Shown here: positions 5,238 through 13,565 of the stretch, one piece after another | Layout of the letters: each line of letters opens with the position of its first letter | Numbering within the stretch: position 1 is the stretch's first letter | Source: an uncultured archaeon | GTDB lineage: Archaea > Iainarchaeota > Iainarchaeia > Iainarchaeales > 0-14-0-20-30-16 | DNA length: 13,712 bases | Direction: 5' to 3' | Assembly (NCBI GenBank): GCA_964480435.1 | Contig: CAYZSS010000022.1 | Coordinates: 1,343 to 15,054, forward strand | Notes under the pieces: model-generated | What the model was told of the DNA's origin: nothing | The model's input: the letters and a program-made list of their open reading frames with translations, nothing else | The model's database searches: none | Translations under genes and position numbers: made by a program

Positions 5238-5438
5238 CGCGGGTTCAAAAAAACCCGGGATTTTGTATGGCGTAAAGCCATACGAGGCTTCGCCACTGGG
5301 TCGAATTACCCCGGGAAATTGCACCACACCATAAGACAATTTTGCTTTTCACAAAATTGCTTAGGGTCCTGAAACTTTTTGCCAAAACGCAAAAAGGTTT
5401 CCTGACAAGGTGGTGCGGGTGCTTCGCACGGGATAAAC
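5238..5438 (+). ncRNA. GC-rich structured RNA candidate; possible divergent cobalamin-riboswitch-like leader of the downstream adenosyltransferase gene, or an independent small RNA
   Basis: About 54% G+C over 5238-5330 by hand count in a ~1/3 G+C window. Helices: 5240-5245/5252-5257; 5265-5271/5277-5283; 5298-5301/5308-5311; long-range GCACCAC 5321-5327 / GUGGUGC 5410-5416 enclosing hairpins 5337-5344/5352-5359 and 5371-5382/5389-5401. GCCACUG (5292-5298), a short hairpin, then CGGGAA (5312-5317). T5 at 5439-5443. Strand was chosen from these motifs, not proven. Confidence 0.5.
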
Positions 5439-7175: not shown

Positions 7176-8012
7176 GTGAAGACTTATTTATTGGGCTTAA
7201 TGGGTTTATTTCTTATTTTATCTGCATCTGCTGTTTTTTCAGCAAGTATGTGGTATGATTTTGGAAACAATTGGGCAACAGATGGGAATGCCTCTCTAAA
7301 TGTTTATGTGGATGCAGGAACTGATGGTACAGCAGACAACAGTAAGGCAGTAACAGTTTCTGTGAGTATTGACTCCAATGAATGTGAATATAGTGATACT
7401 ACTTCTTTACAATCCAATGGGAAATATTATGCTAATTTTAATTTAGATTTAAATTGTGATGGTGTTTTGGATATTAATGGTGCTGACCTTAATTTTGTGA
7501 TTTCAAGCACAAGTCCTGTATTATCAAAGAATTTTAGTTTTTATTTGCCTGGTTTTAAGGATGTAGATATGAACTGGCAAGATGGTAAATTAATAAGTGT
7601 TTATGCTGATGAAAATTTAACAATTAACCCAATTTTTTATGATGAAAATGGATCCGCTTTAGCAGATTTTAACGGGGACTTTAAATTATATTTATTTGGT
7701 CCTGATGGAAACTTTGTAGATAGTTATGATGTAAATGGTTTAGCTGATTATAATTTCCAATATGAAGGAAATTATGCAATAAAAGTTTATTATGGCGGAA
7801 AGGAATATAGCTACAATTTAACAGTAGTTAAATCTGAAGCATCAGCAGATAGTAGTGCTGATGGTACTGGTGCAGAAGGAACTGCAAAAAAGAGCACATG
7901 GTGGATTTGGGCAATTGTAGTTATAGGTGTAATTGCTGTAATCTTGATTGCTGATGTATTACATACTCTTTGGACTGAAAGACCAAAAAAACAAGGTTTG
8001 TCAAGAAAGTAA
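7176..8012 (+). CDS. Secreted/cell-surface protein with N-terminal signal peptide and C-terminal membrane anchor
   Basis: GTG start 5 nt after GGAGGG (7165-7170). Signal-like N-terminus MKTYLLGLMGLFLILSASAVFSA. Five N-x-S/T sequons (NAS, NFS, NLT, NGS, NLT). A Ser/Ala/Gly linker is followed by the hydrophobic helix WWIWAIVVIGVIAVILIADVL and a basic tail. No family recognised. Confidence 0.6.
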   Translation: MKTYLLGLMGLFLILSASAVFSASMWYDFGNNWATDGNASLNVYVDAGTDGTADNSKAVTVSVSIDSNECEYSDTTSLQSNGKYYANFNLDLNCDGVLDINGADLNFVISSTSPVLSKNFSFYLPGFKDVDMNWQDGKLISVYADENLTINPIFYDENGSALADFNGDFKLYLFGPDGNFVDSYDVNGLADYNFQYEGNYAIKVYYGGKEYSYNLTVVKSEASADSSADGTGAEGTAKKSTWWIWAIVVIGVIAVILIADVLHTLWTERPKKQGLSRK

Positions 8013-8105
8013 TTTTTCTAAAGAAAAATTATTTCAGGGCCAGAAGAAATTTCAGTAAAGAAATTTGCTTCTTGCAAAGGTTAAAGTAATTCCTGTAAAG
8101 GAATT
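8010..8105. repeat. Cluster of AT-rich perfect hairpins/dyads in the spacer after the surface-protein gene
   Basis: TAATTTTTC-taaa-GAAAAATTA (8010-8031, overlapping the TAA stop). AAATTTC-agtaaa-GAAATTT (8047-8066). TTTGC-ttctt-GCAAA (8064-8078). AATTCC-tgtaaa-GGAATT (8088-8105). The unit gtaaagRaatttgctt is repeated at 8055-8070 and 8095-8110. Confidence 0.7.
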
Positions 8106-8136
8106 TGCTTTTAATCTTTTCCTTCTTTTTTTTATT

Positions 8137-8868
8137 ATGGCTCATTTTAATACTCATTTAAAATTTGTGGAACCTTTAATTTCCAAACTTGACAAAAACT
8201 ATTTGCTTTCTGGTACTGTGTTTCCTGATATTGGCTTATATGTTAATTTTTCAAATAAAAAACATCAAAAAGATTTTACTCATTTTTTTCACTATCCTGA
8301 ACCAGAGAGTAAGATTGGACTTGAATTTGGAAGGGCTCTAATTGCTAAAGCAAAGACAAAAGAAGAGCTTTCTTTTGCAATAGGATTTTATAGCCATTTC
8401 TGTTTAGATAAAGCAGTGCATACCTATATTATGGGAAATAGCCTTACGCTAGATGAGCACATAATTCTAGAGTTCTTTAGGGCGTACATTGATTTTGAAA
8501 AGAGGGTTAAAAGGCTCTACTTTCCAAAGAAATTTGTTGCTTCTGTTTTTGAAGAGTTATATACACAAAATAAAGATAACTGTGATCATCTAAGGGTTGT
8601 GGGGCGCTGGAAGTTATTTAGATTTAAGTTTATAACTGAATATTTTTTAAGGCACCTAATAAAATTAAACTATGGTAAAAAACAAAAGAAGCTAAGAATA
8701 ATAAAATGTATTTTGTCTTTTTTCCAACCTTTCTACAAAAGAAAATATAATGTGGATTTGTTCTTGTATTTGCATCCACCCTTAAGTCTTAAGAAAAAGC
8801 ATTTGGCTAACTTAAATAGAATTATTGAAAAAACCCAGAAGGATTTCCTAAAGGAATTAAAACTTTAG
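8137..8868 (+). CDS. Hypothetical metal-dependent hydrolase, zinc-dependent phospholipase C-fold-like
   Basis: Starting at ATG 8137 the protein begins MAHFNTHLKF, followed by ..GTVFPDIG.., ..THFFH.. and ..GFYSHFCLDKAVH... This H/D spacing recalls the Zn_dep_PLPC-type family. The TTG 8065 extension in the ORF track is hydrophobic junk overlapping the hairpin spacer. Family assignment is from memory only. Confidence 0.45.
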   Translation: MAHFNTHLKFVEPLISKLDKNYLLSGTVFPDIGLYVNFSNKKHQKDFTHFFHYPEPESKIGLEFGRALIAKAKTKEELSFAIGFYSHFCLDKAVHTYIMGNSLTLDEHIILEFFRAYIDFEKRVKRLYFPKKFVASVFEELYTQNKDNCDHLRVVGRWKLFRFKFITEYFLRHLIKLNYGKKQKKLRIIKCILSFFQPFYKRKYNVDLFLYLHPPLSLKKKHLANLNRIIEKTQKDFLKELKL

Positions 8869-12147: not shown

Positions 12148-12176
12148 AGGAATTTTTATGTCTCTGTTGTGATTTC

Positions 12177-12413
12177 TTTTCTCAGAGAAAAAGCAAATTT
12201 CTGTGCAAACAGAAATTTCTTTAGTAAGAAGTAACTTTTCGAAAGAAAAGTTCTTCTGACCCTCAAACTTTTTCTAGGAAGAAAAAGCTTTGTTGGCTCC
12301 CGAAACAATTTGCTTTTTAGGAAGAAGACATTTTGCAGTTGCAAAATGCTTCAGCCACTGAAATACTTTTGTTTTACACAAAAGTAGTTTCTTTGCAAAA
12401 TGGTTTCTTGAAA
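12177..12413. repeat. Array of at least seven different perfect AT-rich hairpins/dyads in a 299-nt ORF-free spacer
   Basis: 12177-12191 TTTTCTC-a-GAGAAAA. 12195-12218 AAATTTCTG-6-CAGAAATTT. 12233-12252 AACTTTTC-GAAA-GAAAAGTT. 12268-12287 CTTTTTC-6-GAAAAAG. 12329-12348 CATTTTGCA-gt-TGCAAAATG. 12350-12362 TTCAG-cca-CTGAA. 12364-12386 TACTTTTGT-5-ACAAAAGTA. Also TTTGCAAA at 12392-12399. Confidence 0.75.
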
Positions 12414-12446
12414 TCAGCAACTTAGGCACAAAACAAGAGGTATTTT

Positions 12447-13565
12447 ATGCCAATAATATTTAATAAACTGAAGAGGAGGACCCGGAAATCTGTTGTTAGT
12501 GTTGATTACTCGGTATTTCTTTTCTTTTTTGTAATAATATTGGCGTCTTTAATTCTATTTTCTTTTACTACAAAATTTATAAGTGTAATTTTTTTATGTT
12601 TGGTATTTCTTATTTCTGTAATAGTTCACGATTTAGCCCAAATCCTTTACATGATGGCTTTAAAATACAAACTCAAGAGATTTGTGATGTATCCTTTTGG
12701 ATCTAAGAAAGTTTATGACCGGTTTTTTGATAAACCTACACATGAACTGTTTTATGCTTTAATTGGGCCGATTTCTAATCTGGTTGTTCTTGTGGTTGCT
12801 TTTATAATTGCAGTAAATTTACCTAGTGCTTGGCCTGAATCAATCATGCTTAAAGATACTTTGACTGCACAGACTTTTGATATTGCTCTGATTCAATTCC
12901 CTCTGTTTGTTGTTGTGTGGATAAACTTTTTACTATTTATATTTAATTTACTTATTCCTGCCTTGCCTTTGGATGGTGGTAGAATTTTCCATTCTCTTCT
13001 AACAATCTGTTTTGGAAATTATTCGGCAAATAGAATTCTGCCTTTGTTTAGTAAGGTTTTAGGATTTATAGTAATTCTTTGTGGATTTATATTTTGGGAT
13101 CTGCTTGTCCTCATGCTGGGTGTATTTATTTATTTTATGAGTAATAAAGAAGCAAAAGAAAGCGAGTTATATGTTACTCTGGACGGTCAAAAGGCAGGAG
13201 ACCATGTTTCAACTAAGTATCTAATGGTTAAAGCGGAAGAATCGATTTTTGATGTTTTTACTAAGATGTCACAGGAAAGAGAAGTAGATGTGATTGTTGA
13301 TTATGGCAAGAATGAGTATGGTGTTTTGGGGATTGACACAATTTCAACAATTCCAAAAGGTTACTGGGTCTCAGAAAAAGTAGGGGATAGAGCAAAAGTA
13401 GTTGATCATGTAATTCCTACTGAGGGTCTGGCCTTTGTTGTACACTATATGATGGAAAATAGTCTGAATATCTTGCCTGTTTTCAGTAATAAAGAGCAGA
13501 CTATTATTGGTGTTCTAAAAAGAGTAGATATTGCAAGTGTTATCAGATTGGGAAGAATTTCTTAA
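12447..13565 (+). CDS. Site-2 protease (peptidase M50) family membrane protein with C-terminal CBS pair; zinc motif degenerate (HDLAQ)
   Basis: 372 aa, polytopic. The family motif NLLIPALPLDGGRIF (NxxPxxxLDGG) is present. The position of HExxH reads VHDLAQ (12627-12641). The C-terminal ~140 aa has two CBS-like repeats. GAGGT SD at 12437-12441. Confidence 0.75.
   Translation: MPIIFNKLKRRTRKSVVSVDYSVFLFFFVIILASLILFSFTTKFISVIFLCLVFLISVIVHDLAQILYMMALKYKLKRFVMYPFGSKKVYDRFFDKPTHELFYALIGPISNLVVLVVAFIIAVNLPSAWPESIMLKDTLTAQTFDIALIQFPLFVVVWINFLLFIFNLLIPALPLDGGRIFHSLLTICFGNYSANRILPLFSKVLGFIVILCGFIFWDLLVLMLGVFIYFMSNKEAKESELYVTLDGQKAGDHVSTKYLMVKAEESIFDVFTKMSQEREVDVIVDYGKNEYGVLGIDTISTIPKGYWVSEKVGDRAKVVDHVIPTEGLAFVVHYMMENSLNILPVFSNKEQTIIGVLKRVDIASVIRLGRIS

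Follow-up and report, generated by a model that had tools for sequence, protein, structure and literature searches.

Among the described systems closest to the repeats considered here are the repetitive extragenic palindromes (REP), the bacterial interspersed mosaic elements (BIME) and the REP doublets forming hairpins (REPIN), i.e. bacterial repetitive extragenic palindromes that are mobilised by Y1-HUH transposases of the REP-associated tyrosine transposase (RAYT) type (PMC2817692, PMC3116915, PMC3733652). The subject of this report is a 299-nt spacer, positions 12148–12446 in a stretch of 13 712 nt (the window; contig C22:1343-15054) from an uncultured archaeon of the Iainarchaeota, which separates a small membrane-protein gene from an M50-family protease-like gene. 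DPANN genomes are tiny and densely packed, and are usually thought to be poor in selfish DNA. Literature searches turned up no account of repeats of this kind, either in Iainarchaeota or elsewhere among DPANN. The best explanation of the spacer, to which we assign a probability of about 0.78, is that copies of a mobile palindromic repeat specific to the genus were inserted here as a mosaic, as opposed to a dedicated RNA gene or regulator.

In what follows, G000 is this genome (724 kb in 30 contigs, 31% GC, 77% complete), G001 and G002 are congeners, C-numbers are contigs and L-numbers are fetched loci. The assemblies of G000 and G001 are 77–85% complete.

Hairpins in the spacer

No other spacer of the window is as long, in agreement with the initial annotation, and all six hairpins named there are present, although two arms were given too short: the dyad at 12195–12218 has 10 bp, not 9, and that at 12268–12287 has 8 bp, not 7 (Table 1). 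The chance level was taken from 2000 dinucleotide-preserving shuffles of 12148–12446. Six dyads with arms of at least 7 bp are observed against a shuffled mean of 0.81 (P~0.006), five with arms of at least 8 bp against 0.27 (P~0.001), and three with arms of at least 9 bp against 0.10 (P~0.001). Folding is strong on both strands, with energies of -90.8 kcal/mol for the plus strand (z -5.5) and -92.2 kcal/mol for the minus strand (z -6.5). It had been asked at the outset whether coding DNA might be equally rich in dyads. Genome-wide, perfect dyads with arms of at least 8 bp occur at 0.31/kb in coding and 2.07/kb in non-coding DNA, a difference of about 7-fold, so the condition set for refuting the observation does not hold. 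The GC content of the spacer, 33%, is at genome level.

The spacer is not an assembly artefact, since its sequence is identical in two further public assemblies; in a third the contig breaks inside it, as is expected of a repeat. The description ‘ORF-free’ holds loosely: there are mechanical minus-strand open reading frames (ORFs) of 62 aa (12156–12344) and 51 aa (12274–12429), and a 71-aa plus-strand ORF runs across the left edge, but none is gene-like. Scans of the window for tRNA and tmRNA found none, and the Rfam covariance models gave zero matches at gathering scores, the best permissive hit scoring ~20 bits against cut-offs of 40–170. Neither a CRISPR array nor a simple tandem repeat is present, as was said from the start: there is no constant repeat, no Cas1 was found, and Tandem Repeats Finder detects no array within the spacer. 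A C/D-box or H/ACA small RNA was rejected by eye, as no C/D boxes are kept across copies and the perfect stems have no pseudouridylation pocket.

The repeat unit

The hairpins of the spacer are diverged copies of one ~38-nt structured unit. The earlier view that the arms are not copies of one another was thus wrong in spirit, for they are diverged members of a single unit family. The unit reads 5′-X1X2, AA, N-A-A-R, a 1-nt bulge, a variable stem of 7–10 bp, a loop of 2–7 nt, stem′, Y-T-T-N′, AG, X2′X1′-3′. Its conserved traits are two covarying outer pairs, an asymmetric 2x2 internal loop (5′-AA / 5′-AG), and a 4-bp foot NAAR/YTTN with the 5′ bulge. A plain scan for a GAAG...CTTC foot is defeated by the 1-nt bulge, and a covariance model, termed R1, was used instead.

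When 30 two-hairpin modules are aligned and analysed with RNAalifold, each hairpin extends into the apparent linkers by way of the covarying outer pairs, and the second hairpin of a module proves to be the reverse complement of the unit type of the first. Scored on 54 units, a stated structure has 137 double-sided-change cells compared with 57.5 in shuffles (0 of 500 shuffles reach 137), and it scores above all slid controls. The 48 model matches of this genome were parsed and 44 distinct units counted. In these, 614 of 626 pairs (98%) are Watson-Crick; five are G·T and three A·C, so there is no wobble excess. The 5′ AA loop is found in 41 of the 44 units, the 3′ AG loop in 39 and the 5′ bulge in 42. 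All four Watson-Crick types are seen at the first foot pair and likewise at the outermost pair X1-X1′, and the outer dinucleotide X1X2 occurs in about 10 different Watson-Crick combinations. Most units come in pairs, and adjacent units follow a strict arrangement, 15 of 15 pairs running (+) then (-), tail-to-tail, with an overlap of ~3 nt, and such doublets build into larger arrays.

Copies in the genome and in related genomes

Searches of the whole G000 genome with the spacer (BLAST and nhmmer) reveal a paralogue at C3:45481-45839 that is 92–94% identical. It lies between pilin-like genes, in the leader of one of them, and is inverted relative to its flanking genes. The sole large difference between the two arrays is one exact ~75-nt doublet, which in the C3 copy is found inside the loop of the hairpin that matches 12233–12252. 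The 51-aa minus-strand ORF mentioned above (VPKLLISRNHFAKKLLLCKTKVFQWLKHFATAKCLLPKKQIVSGANKAFSS) shares homology with the pilin pre-leader, which is what the C3 array encodes in frame; it is a by-product of the repeat and not a gene.

Pieces that are 75–85% identical to the spacer are present on C10, C2, C9, C13, C18, C11 and C4, and weaker copies on at least 10 contigs. An unbiased scan for neighbouring dyads found the shared linker (TTTCAGGGNCTGAAG or its complement) at ~25 places in G000, two more of them in the window. With R1, 48 units are detected at 29 loci in G000 (E<=0.01), and most of these are outside long ORFs. For comparison across genomes stricter filters were applied (E<=0.001), and these yield 35 units in G000, 14 in G001 and 33 in G002; the 58 further genomes taken from this family and order, four of them from the sister genus, have 0. 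Within the set of genomes searched, the unit family thus occurs in this genus only, and the zero count in related AT-rich genomes serves also as a specificity control for R1. One of the roles first proposed for the spacer, a decayed repeat element, is borne out as to the repeat but not as to decay: most units are intact, the family is dispersed, and its presence or absence differs between congeners.

Mobility

The flanks of the 29 G000 loci were compared site by site with the whole G001 genome. Twenty of the loci are syntenic in G001 and 17 of these are empty there; the remaining three carry a unit at the orthologous place, as do two more loci for which one flank was found. The two other family sites of the window (5337–5405 and 8002–8075) have no detected unit at the syntenic G001 places.

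The occupied locations include tRNA introns. The tRNA-Trp intron is 385 nt long in G000 (C2:23919-24376) and 88 nt in G001, and the tRNA-Asn intron 258 nt (C9:27449-27781) and 125 nt, respectively; both G000 introns are filled with units. The tRNA-Gly(CCC) intron shows the reverse, being 85 nt in G000 and 150 nt in G001 (C3:189314-189534), where a unit is present. A conserved ORF carries a 69-nt (23-codon) in-frame unit insertion at C4:17257-17325 that is absent from the G001 orthologue (C5:42968-43020). The comparison thus shows that the family is mobile: its location differs between congeners, and it occupies gene starts, tRNA introns and in-frame coding sequence.

Two further tRNA neighbourhoods should be mentioned. 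At C10:20306-20503 a second copy of the tRNA-Thr 5′ end (GCCACTGAGCCACAGAAGCAC) occurs ~125 nt off, among hairpins of the GCCTTTTT...AAAAAGGC type, an arrangement that resembles an att-like partial tRNA duplication. A GC-richer segment at C9:~27890-28110, which adjoins tRNA-Asn and contains GGAAGGTCCGCCC, is by its look a candidate RNase P RNA.

Insertion at start codons

Six solo units of G000 lie directly after a start codon. On either side of each stands a perfect direct repeat of 12–17 nt, particular to the locus, that spans the Shine-Dalgarno (SD) sequence and the ATG (Table 1). For the loci on C17, C20 and C21, the G001 site is confirmed to be empty and to hold the repeat only once. The same pattern is found at the four-unit array C11:17064 and at a G001 unit at C19:27000. 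Overall, flanking repeats with at least 11 matches are present at 19 of 45 loci, compared with 8 of 135 shifted controls; doublets often are without direct repeats.

Beside the tail of each solo unit the final ~7 nt of the repeat recur in inverted form, and this inverted copy tracks the locus (AACTATG/CATAGTT on C21, TTTATGA/TCATAAA on C17). The solo-unit pattern can be written a-b-U-U′-b′-x-a-b. An element-borne promoter-SD-ATG cassette was considered, as several right-hand copies read GTGTGAYTTTATG, and was rejected as a general rule: the repeats are locus-specific and perfect within a locus. A fixed target such as TTAC, in the manner of IS608, was rejected also, the bases beside the unit heads not being conserved (partly by eye).

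The M50 junction

The gene order HSP20, 91-aa gene, M50 is kept in G001 (L002), in G002 (L001) and in a metagenome contig (L030), and in all three M50 opens with a GTG 1 nt past the stop of the 91-aa gene. In the sister genus a homologous ORF of 96–98 aa ends 9–13 nt upstream of M50. The M50 proteins of the two congeners (379 and 356+ aa) are 94% identical, and both are 77–78% identical to that of G000, which makes G000 the outgroup of the three. The tight coupling in congeners and sister genus is thus ancestral, and it was the G000 lineage that gained the 299-nt gap. The region 12148–12446 is a lineage-specific insertion of ~270–285 nt between genes that were ancestrally almost contiguous.

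The insert, a mosaic, comprises four intact unit copies and no fewer than three that are decayed or truncated (Table 1). The three decayed ~35-nt units at first supposed at 12233–12328 were close to the mark in spacing, the real value being ~37 nt, but most units are intact. At its left end, the copy of AGGAATTTTTATG opens a 4-codon relic ORF, ATG TCT CTG TTG TGA, ending at 12172. The dyad that follows, compared by eye with C9, C10, C13, L019 and L022, looks as if left over from a hairpin of the CTTTTCTTTT...AAAAGAAAAG type, which comes after CTTCTTAC ends at tRNA-associated copies. An 81% identical copy of unit 4 is found inside the tRNA-Trp intron (C2:24216-24300). The right end, 12396–12436, finishing in CTTAGGCAC-AAAACAAG, resembles the family 3′ end ...YTT-AG-GY-N-CATAAAATATAA when compared with solo-unit ends.

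Both edges of the insert, AGGAATTTTTATG at 12148–12160 and GAGGTATTTTATG at 12437–12449, can be read as start-region copies, and together with the right end they fit the insertion habit seen at start codons; it is the downstream copy that now serves M50. There are two other ways to place the junction. ATG-TCT-CTG at 12158–12166 resembles GTG-TCT-GTG of the congeners, and the break could follow codon 3; also, AATTTTTATG can be read as the reverse complement of the CATAAAA-type end of the element, as the C3 homology suggests. The sequence AAAGGAATTTTTAT, initially annotated as BRE/TATA-like, is better read as one of the two SD+ATG copies or as the reverse complement of such a CATAAAA-type end.

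At exactly the G000 insert point, G001 (L002 2980-3010) has 12 nt more than G002 (L001 2989-3010). These nucleotides (CCTATAACTATG) repeat the RTG-CCW-ATAA start region imperfectly and in tandem, and may be the footprint of a lost insertion.

Table 1. Coordinates of repeat units, dyads, direct repeats and adjoining genes (window positions unless a contig is named)
Feature	Position	Strand	Details
Small membrane-protein gene, 91 aa	11872–12147	+	ORF; upstream partner of M50 in conserved gene pair
Left start-region direct repeat AGGAATTTTTATG (SD-like AGGA + ATG)	12148–12160	+	Same pattern at six solo units and four-unit array C11:17064
Polypyrimidine/polypurine dyad, 7 bp, TTTTCTC-A-GAGAAAA	12177–12191		Dyad scan
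Degenerate unit holding 10-bp dyad 12195–12218	12184–12224	+	Tail CTTT-AG-TA kept, head unpaired; below model threshold; parsed by eye
Intact unit 1: GT-AA-GAAG-t-AACTTTTC-gaaa-GAAAAGTT-CTTC-TG-AC	12224–12261	+	R1 match C22:13566-13603, E 9e-5
Intact unit 2: CC-AA-CAAA-g-CTTTTTCT-tcct-AGAAAAAG-TTTG-AG-GG	12259–12296	-	R1 match C22:13601-13638; doublet 1, tail-to-tail with unit 1
Truncated unit, 3′ half only (...GCAAATTG-TTTC-GG-GA on minus strand)	12297–12319	-	Compared with congener three-unit elements L017, L019, L020
Intact unit 3: GG-AA-GAAG-a-CATTTTGCA-gt-TGCAAAATG-CTTC-AG-CC	12320–12357	+	R1 match C22:13662-13699, E 3e-4
Intact unit 4: CA-AA-GAAA-c-TACTTTTGT-gtaaa-ACAAAAGTA-TTTC-AG-TG	12355–12395	-	R1 match C22:13697-13737; doublet 2, tail-to-tail with unit 3
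Decayed unit heads/tails (CAAAATGGTTTCTTGAAATCAGCAACTTAGGCAC), then AAAACAAG	12396–12436		C3 paralogue alignment reaches ~12414–12429
Right start-region repeat GAGGTATTTTATG	12437–12449	+	Working Shine-Dalgarno and M50 start codon; 11/13 positions match left copy, one gap
M50-family (site-2-protease-like) gene with CBS domain	12447–13565	+	Pfam PF02163, PF00571; intact, 372 aa, downstream of insertion
Second family site, two-hairpin module after ribonucleotide reductase gene	5337–5405		Unit 5366–5405 on minus strand; R1 match C22:6708-6747, E 3e-5
Third family site, tail-to-tail doublet at junction of ORFs 7176–8012 and 8065–8868	8002–8075		8002–8040 (+), 8038–8075 (-); R1 matches C22:9344-9382, C22:9380-9417
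Dyad	12177–12191		Arm 7 bp, loop 1 nt
Dyad	12195–12218		Arm 10 bp, loop 4 nt
Dyad	12233–12252		Arm 8 bp, loop 4 nt
Dyad	12268–12287		Arm 8 bp, loop 4 nt
Dyad	12329–12348		Arm 9 bp, loop 2 nt
Dyad	12364–12386		Arm 9 bp, loop 5 nt
Solo-unit direct repeat GGTGTGACTTTATGA	C17:10884		15 nt
Solo-unit direct repeat AAGGTGTTAATTTATGG	C26:3580		17 nt
Solo-unit direct repeat GTGATTTGAATGA	C20:14042		13 nt
Solo-unit direct repeat GTGATTTTATGGACAA	C5:1945		16 nt
Solo-unit direct repeat GATAACTATGGA	C21:3476		12 nt
Solo-unit direct repeat ATGCCAAGACCAA	C16:7750		13 nt

Origin and function of the spacer

The Watson-Crick stems without wobble excess, the strand alternation, the placement in either orientation to genes, the empty orthologous sites and the occupancy of introns and ORFs together argue for a hairpin-recognising process at the DNA level and not for an RNA gene, leader or operator. 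By analogy with REP/BIME/REPIN, the Rickettsia palindromic element (RPE) and the mycobacterial interspersed repetitive unit (MIRU), the family probably is, or recently was, non-autonomous selfish DNA that acts at the DNA level, probably as a single-strand hairpin. The window array would have been copied as a block from, or to, the array in the pilin-like gene leader. It would have landed at the M50 start region, leaving SD+ATG on each side, with the downstream copy keeping M50 translatable. The spacer would have no dedicated host function. A probable side effect is the uncoupling of M50 from the transcription and translation unit of HSP20 and the small protein, and T5 runs with hairpins may attenuate read-through.

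Several points weigh against this interpretation. No transposase or integrase was found for the units: neither G000 nor G001, assemblies that are 77–85% complete, gave a match when searched for Y1/HUH, Cas1, reverse transcriptase or DDE_Tnp_1. The near-perfect stems and the covariation show that the hairpin is maintained, which could also reflect a role beneficial to the host. Only one genome pair was compared site by site, and G000 is the outgroup to G001/G002, so that gain and loss are not always separable at the other loci. The boundaries of the window insertion are given to about ±15 nt, with three junction readings, and its SD+ATG copies match at 11 of 13 positions only, while start regions of G000 resemble one another anyway.

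TnpB also was not found in G000 and G001 (77–85% complete), nor was the Y1 domain PF01797, which in G002 is part of an ordinary IS200/IS605 with tnpB. This complete element (C9:14669-16272, L031), with divergent tnpB (379 aa) and tnpA (144 aa), abuts a tRNA gene and holds the sole Y1 transposase found in the genus. G002 carries further copies of tnpB as well as DDE transposases on small contigs. As a mobiliser of the units the G002 IS200/IS605 was rejected: its ends are unlike the unit, and a shared 12-mer (TTTCTTTGCAAA) is probably due to chance.

Perhaps no conventional transposase is needed. The units might represent undescribed archaeal mobile DNA in which the hairpin is copied into translation start sites by fold-back/template-switch (or target-pairing), duplicating the 12–17 nt of SD+ATG and leaving the inverted target copy seen in a-b-U-U′-b′-x-a-b; the window array would be a multi-unit product. 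This proposal is tentative, and we consider it rather unlikely. If true, an interrupted gene would automatically keep a working start, with the old start buried in a stem, and the expansion of tRNA introns would come about in the same way.

Host functions have been considered against the insertion of a mobile repeat. The spacer might be a functional bidirectional terminator/insulator, recruited by the host to part the HSP20/small-protein unit from M50, with T5 hairpins on both strands stopping RNA polymerase. There are three plus-strand T5 runs (12151–12155, 12269–12273 and 12313–12317), each stem gives the same on the minus strand, folding is strong on both, and bacterial repeats of the MITE (miniature inverted-repeat transposable element) type are known to terminate transcripts or alter mRNA stability (reviewed in PMC10969869). 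A terminator or insulator side effect is indeed plausible given these runs. It is improbable, however, that termination is the purpose, as units also lie inside the tRNA-Trp and tRNA-Asn introns and, in frame, inside ORFs, where it would be harmful; moreover, the gene pair is 1–13 nt apart in every relative examined, and thus the separation does not meet an ancestral need. The folding z-scores (-5.5 and -6.5) and the strong stem covariation might also point to transcription of the array, be it as a non-coding RNA with a structure or as a long 5′ leader that regulates M50, whose hairpins are kept for protein binding, processing or stability. Units in tRNA introns are certainly transcribed, and beside a solo unit the relic ATG upstream would end up buried by the hairpin. 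Yet this role, also put forward in the initial annotation, has little chance of being correct: strand alternation means that any transcript carries half the units with a CU/UU loop in place of AA/AG, there is no G·U excess (5 G·T vs 3 A·C of 626 pairs), no Rfam family matches, the 33% GC is no different from the genome, the spacer is absent at every orthologous locus, and the C3 paralogue is inverted relative to its neighbour genes.

The two remaining explanations concern the DNA itself. The best-conserved sequences are the 15-nt linkers, CTTCAG-GGN-CTGAAG and CTTCTT-ACC-AAGAAG, themselves inverted repeats with a 3-nt centre, and the palindromes could on that ground be duplex operator or nucleoid sites for a dimeric protein, as was suggested earlier. 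We regard such an operator array as very unlikely. The linker halves covary across the variable stem (CCAAGAA/TTCAGGG -> CCAACAA/TTGAGGG, CTAAGAA/TTCAGAG etc.), which is sensible only if the long hairpin forms; the arms vary freely, and the conserved features, the 1-nt bulge and the AA/AG loop, exist in the folded form only. Furthermore, the sites are scattered over gene starts, introns and ORFs and have no common regulon. That the density of dyads simply follows from an AT-rich composition of low complexity has next to no chance of being right, despite a genome of 31% GC whose non-coding DNA has ~7 times the dyads of coding DNA. Shuffles reach 0.27 dyads with arms of at least 8 bp and the spacer has 5, a defined architecture is common to the hairpins, homologues of which lie elsewhere in the genome, and R1 finds none in 58 related AT-rich genomes.

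Other features of the window

The window contains archaeal genes such as those for ribosomal protein S8e, NOG1 and similar, and an HSP20 gene is upstream of the 91-aa ORF. The closest relatives with a name are MAGs of ‘Candidatus ainarchaeum sp.’, which puts the genome in the DPANN group Iainarchaeota. In place of the family motif HExxH, the M50 homologue has H-D-L-A-Q at 12627–12641, and its counterparts in the congeners have H-D-I-I-Q, so that the altered metal site is conserved in the genus and not a recent decay. The ORF at 2107–2814 contains a 30/60/90-nt tandem repeat in ~12 copies and encodes a repeat protein with a 10-residue period.

Implications

A genus-specific palindromic family still spreads in these DPANN genomes, by way of a few ‘safe’ places: gene starts, where the start signal is regenerated, tRNA introns, and in-frame positions. 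For annotation this means that spacers which are long and rich in hairpins, unusual N-terminal extensions and oversized tRNA introns should here be taken as repeat insertions and not as novel genes for RNA or novel protein domains. Where metagenome assemblies of these organisms break between contigs, the repeats offer the explanation. In the AA/AG loop and the 5′ bulge, both conserved, there is a concrete ligand for a putative hairpin-recognising activity, and the start-codon duplications are an unusual insertion signature that can be tested.

Comparison with known repeat elements

MITEs and palindrome-associated transposable elements (PATEs), including the archaeal ones of Sulfolobus and Haloquadratum (PMC10969869), and the Neisseria Correia elements are, like the family described here, small, structured and non-autonomous. 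They nest into one another and affect the expression of neighbour genes. They also have terminal inverted repeats, and the doublets here end in CCAAGAAR ... YTTCTTAC/GG, because the units are arranged inverted. In contrast to MITEs, no parent insertion sequence with matching ends was found (Y1, DDE_Tnp_1, Cas1 and reverse transcriptase are negative in G000 and G001, and the IS200/IS605 present in the congener G002 only has ends unlike the unit). The direct repeats here are variable in length and unusually long (12–17 nt, spanning SD+ATG at solo units), and the modular unit is far smaller than typical MITEs.

MIRUs resemble the family in being found at gene junctions of operons, where a short ORF and a regenerated start signal preserve downstream translation. 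They differ in that they are bacterial, direct tandem repeats of 40–100 bp, not hairpin doublets, and have no covarying stems. RPEs (PMC10969869) are likewise selfish palindromes in a reduced genome, found in frame in protein genes and also in RNA genes without destroying them, and associated with no known transposase; the in-frame insert on C4 resembles such an RPE-type insert within a gene. However, RPEs are bacterial single elements of ~100–150 bp, have no sequence relation to the unit, and no start-codon duplication has been described for them.

The likeness to REP/BIME/REPIN extends to the ~35–40 nt imperfect palindromes with a conserved foot and a variable stem in which compensatory change keeps the pairing, to the alternating orientation, doublets and mosaic clusters, and to the mostly extragenic, lineage-restricted families. 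There are differences as well. No RAYT gene was found in G000 and G001 (77–85% complete), and the GTAG or CGTC tag is replaced here by the unit head NN-AA-NAAR. The copy number is in the tens, not hundreds (48 units at 29 loci), and direct repeats of 12–17 nt are present, whereas REPINs are without them. Finally, the units described here also occupy start codons, tRNA introns and ORFs, and their host is an archaeon of the DPANN group.

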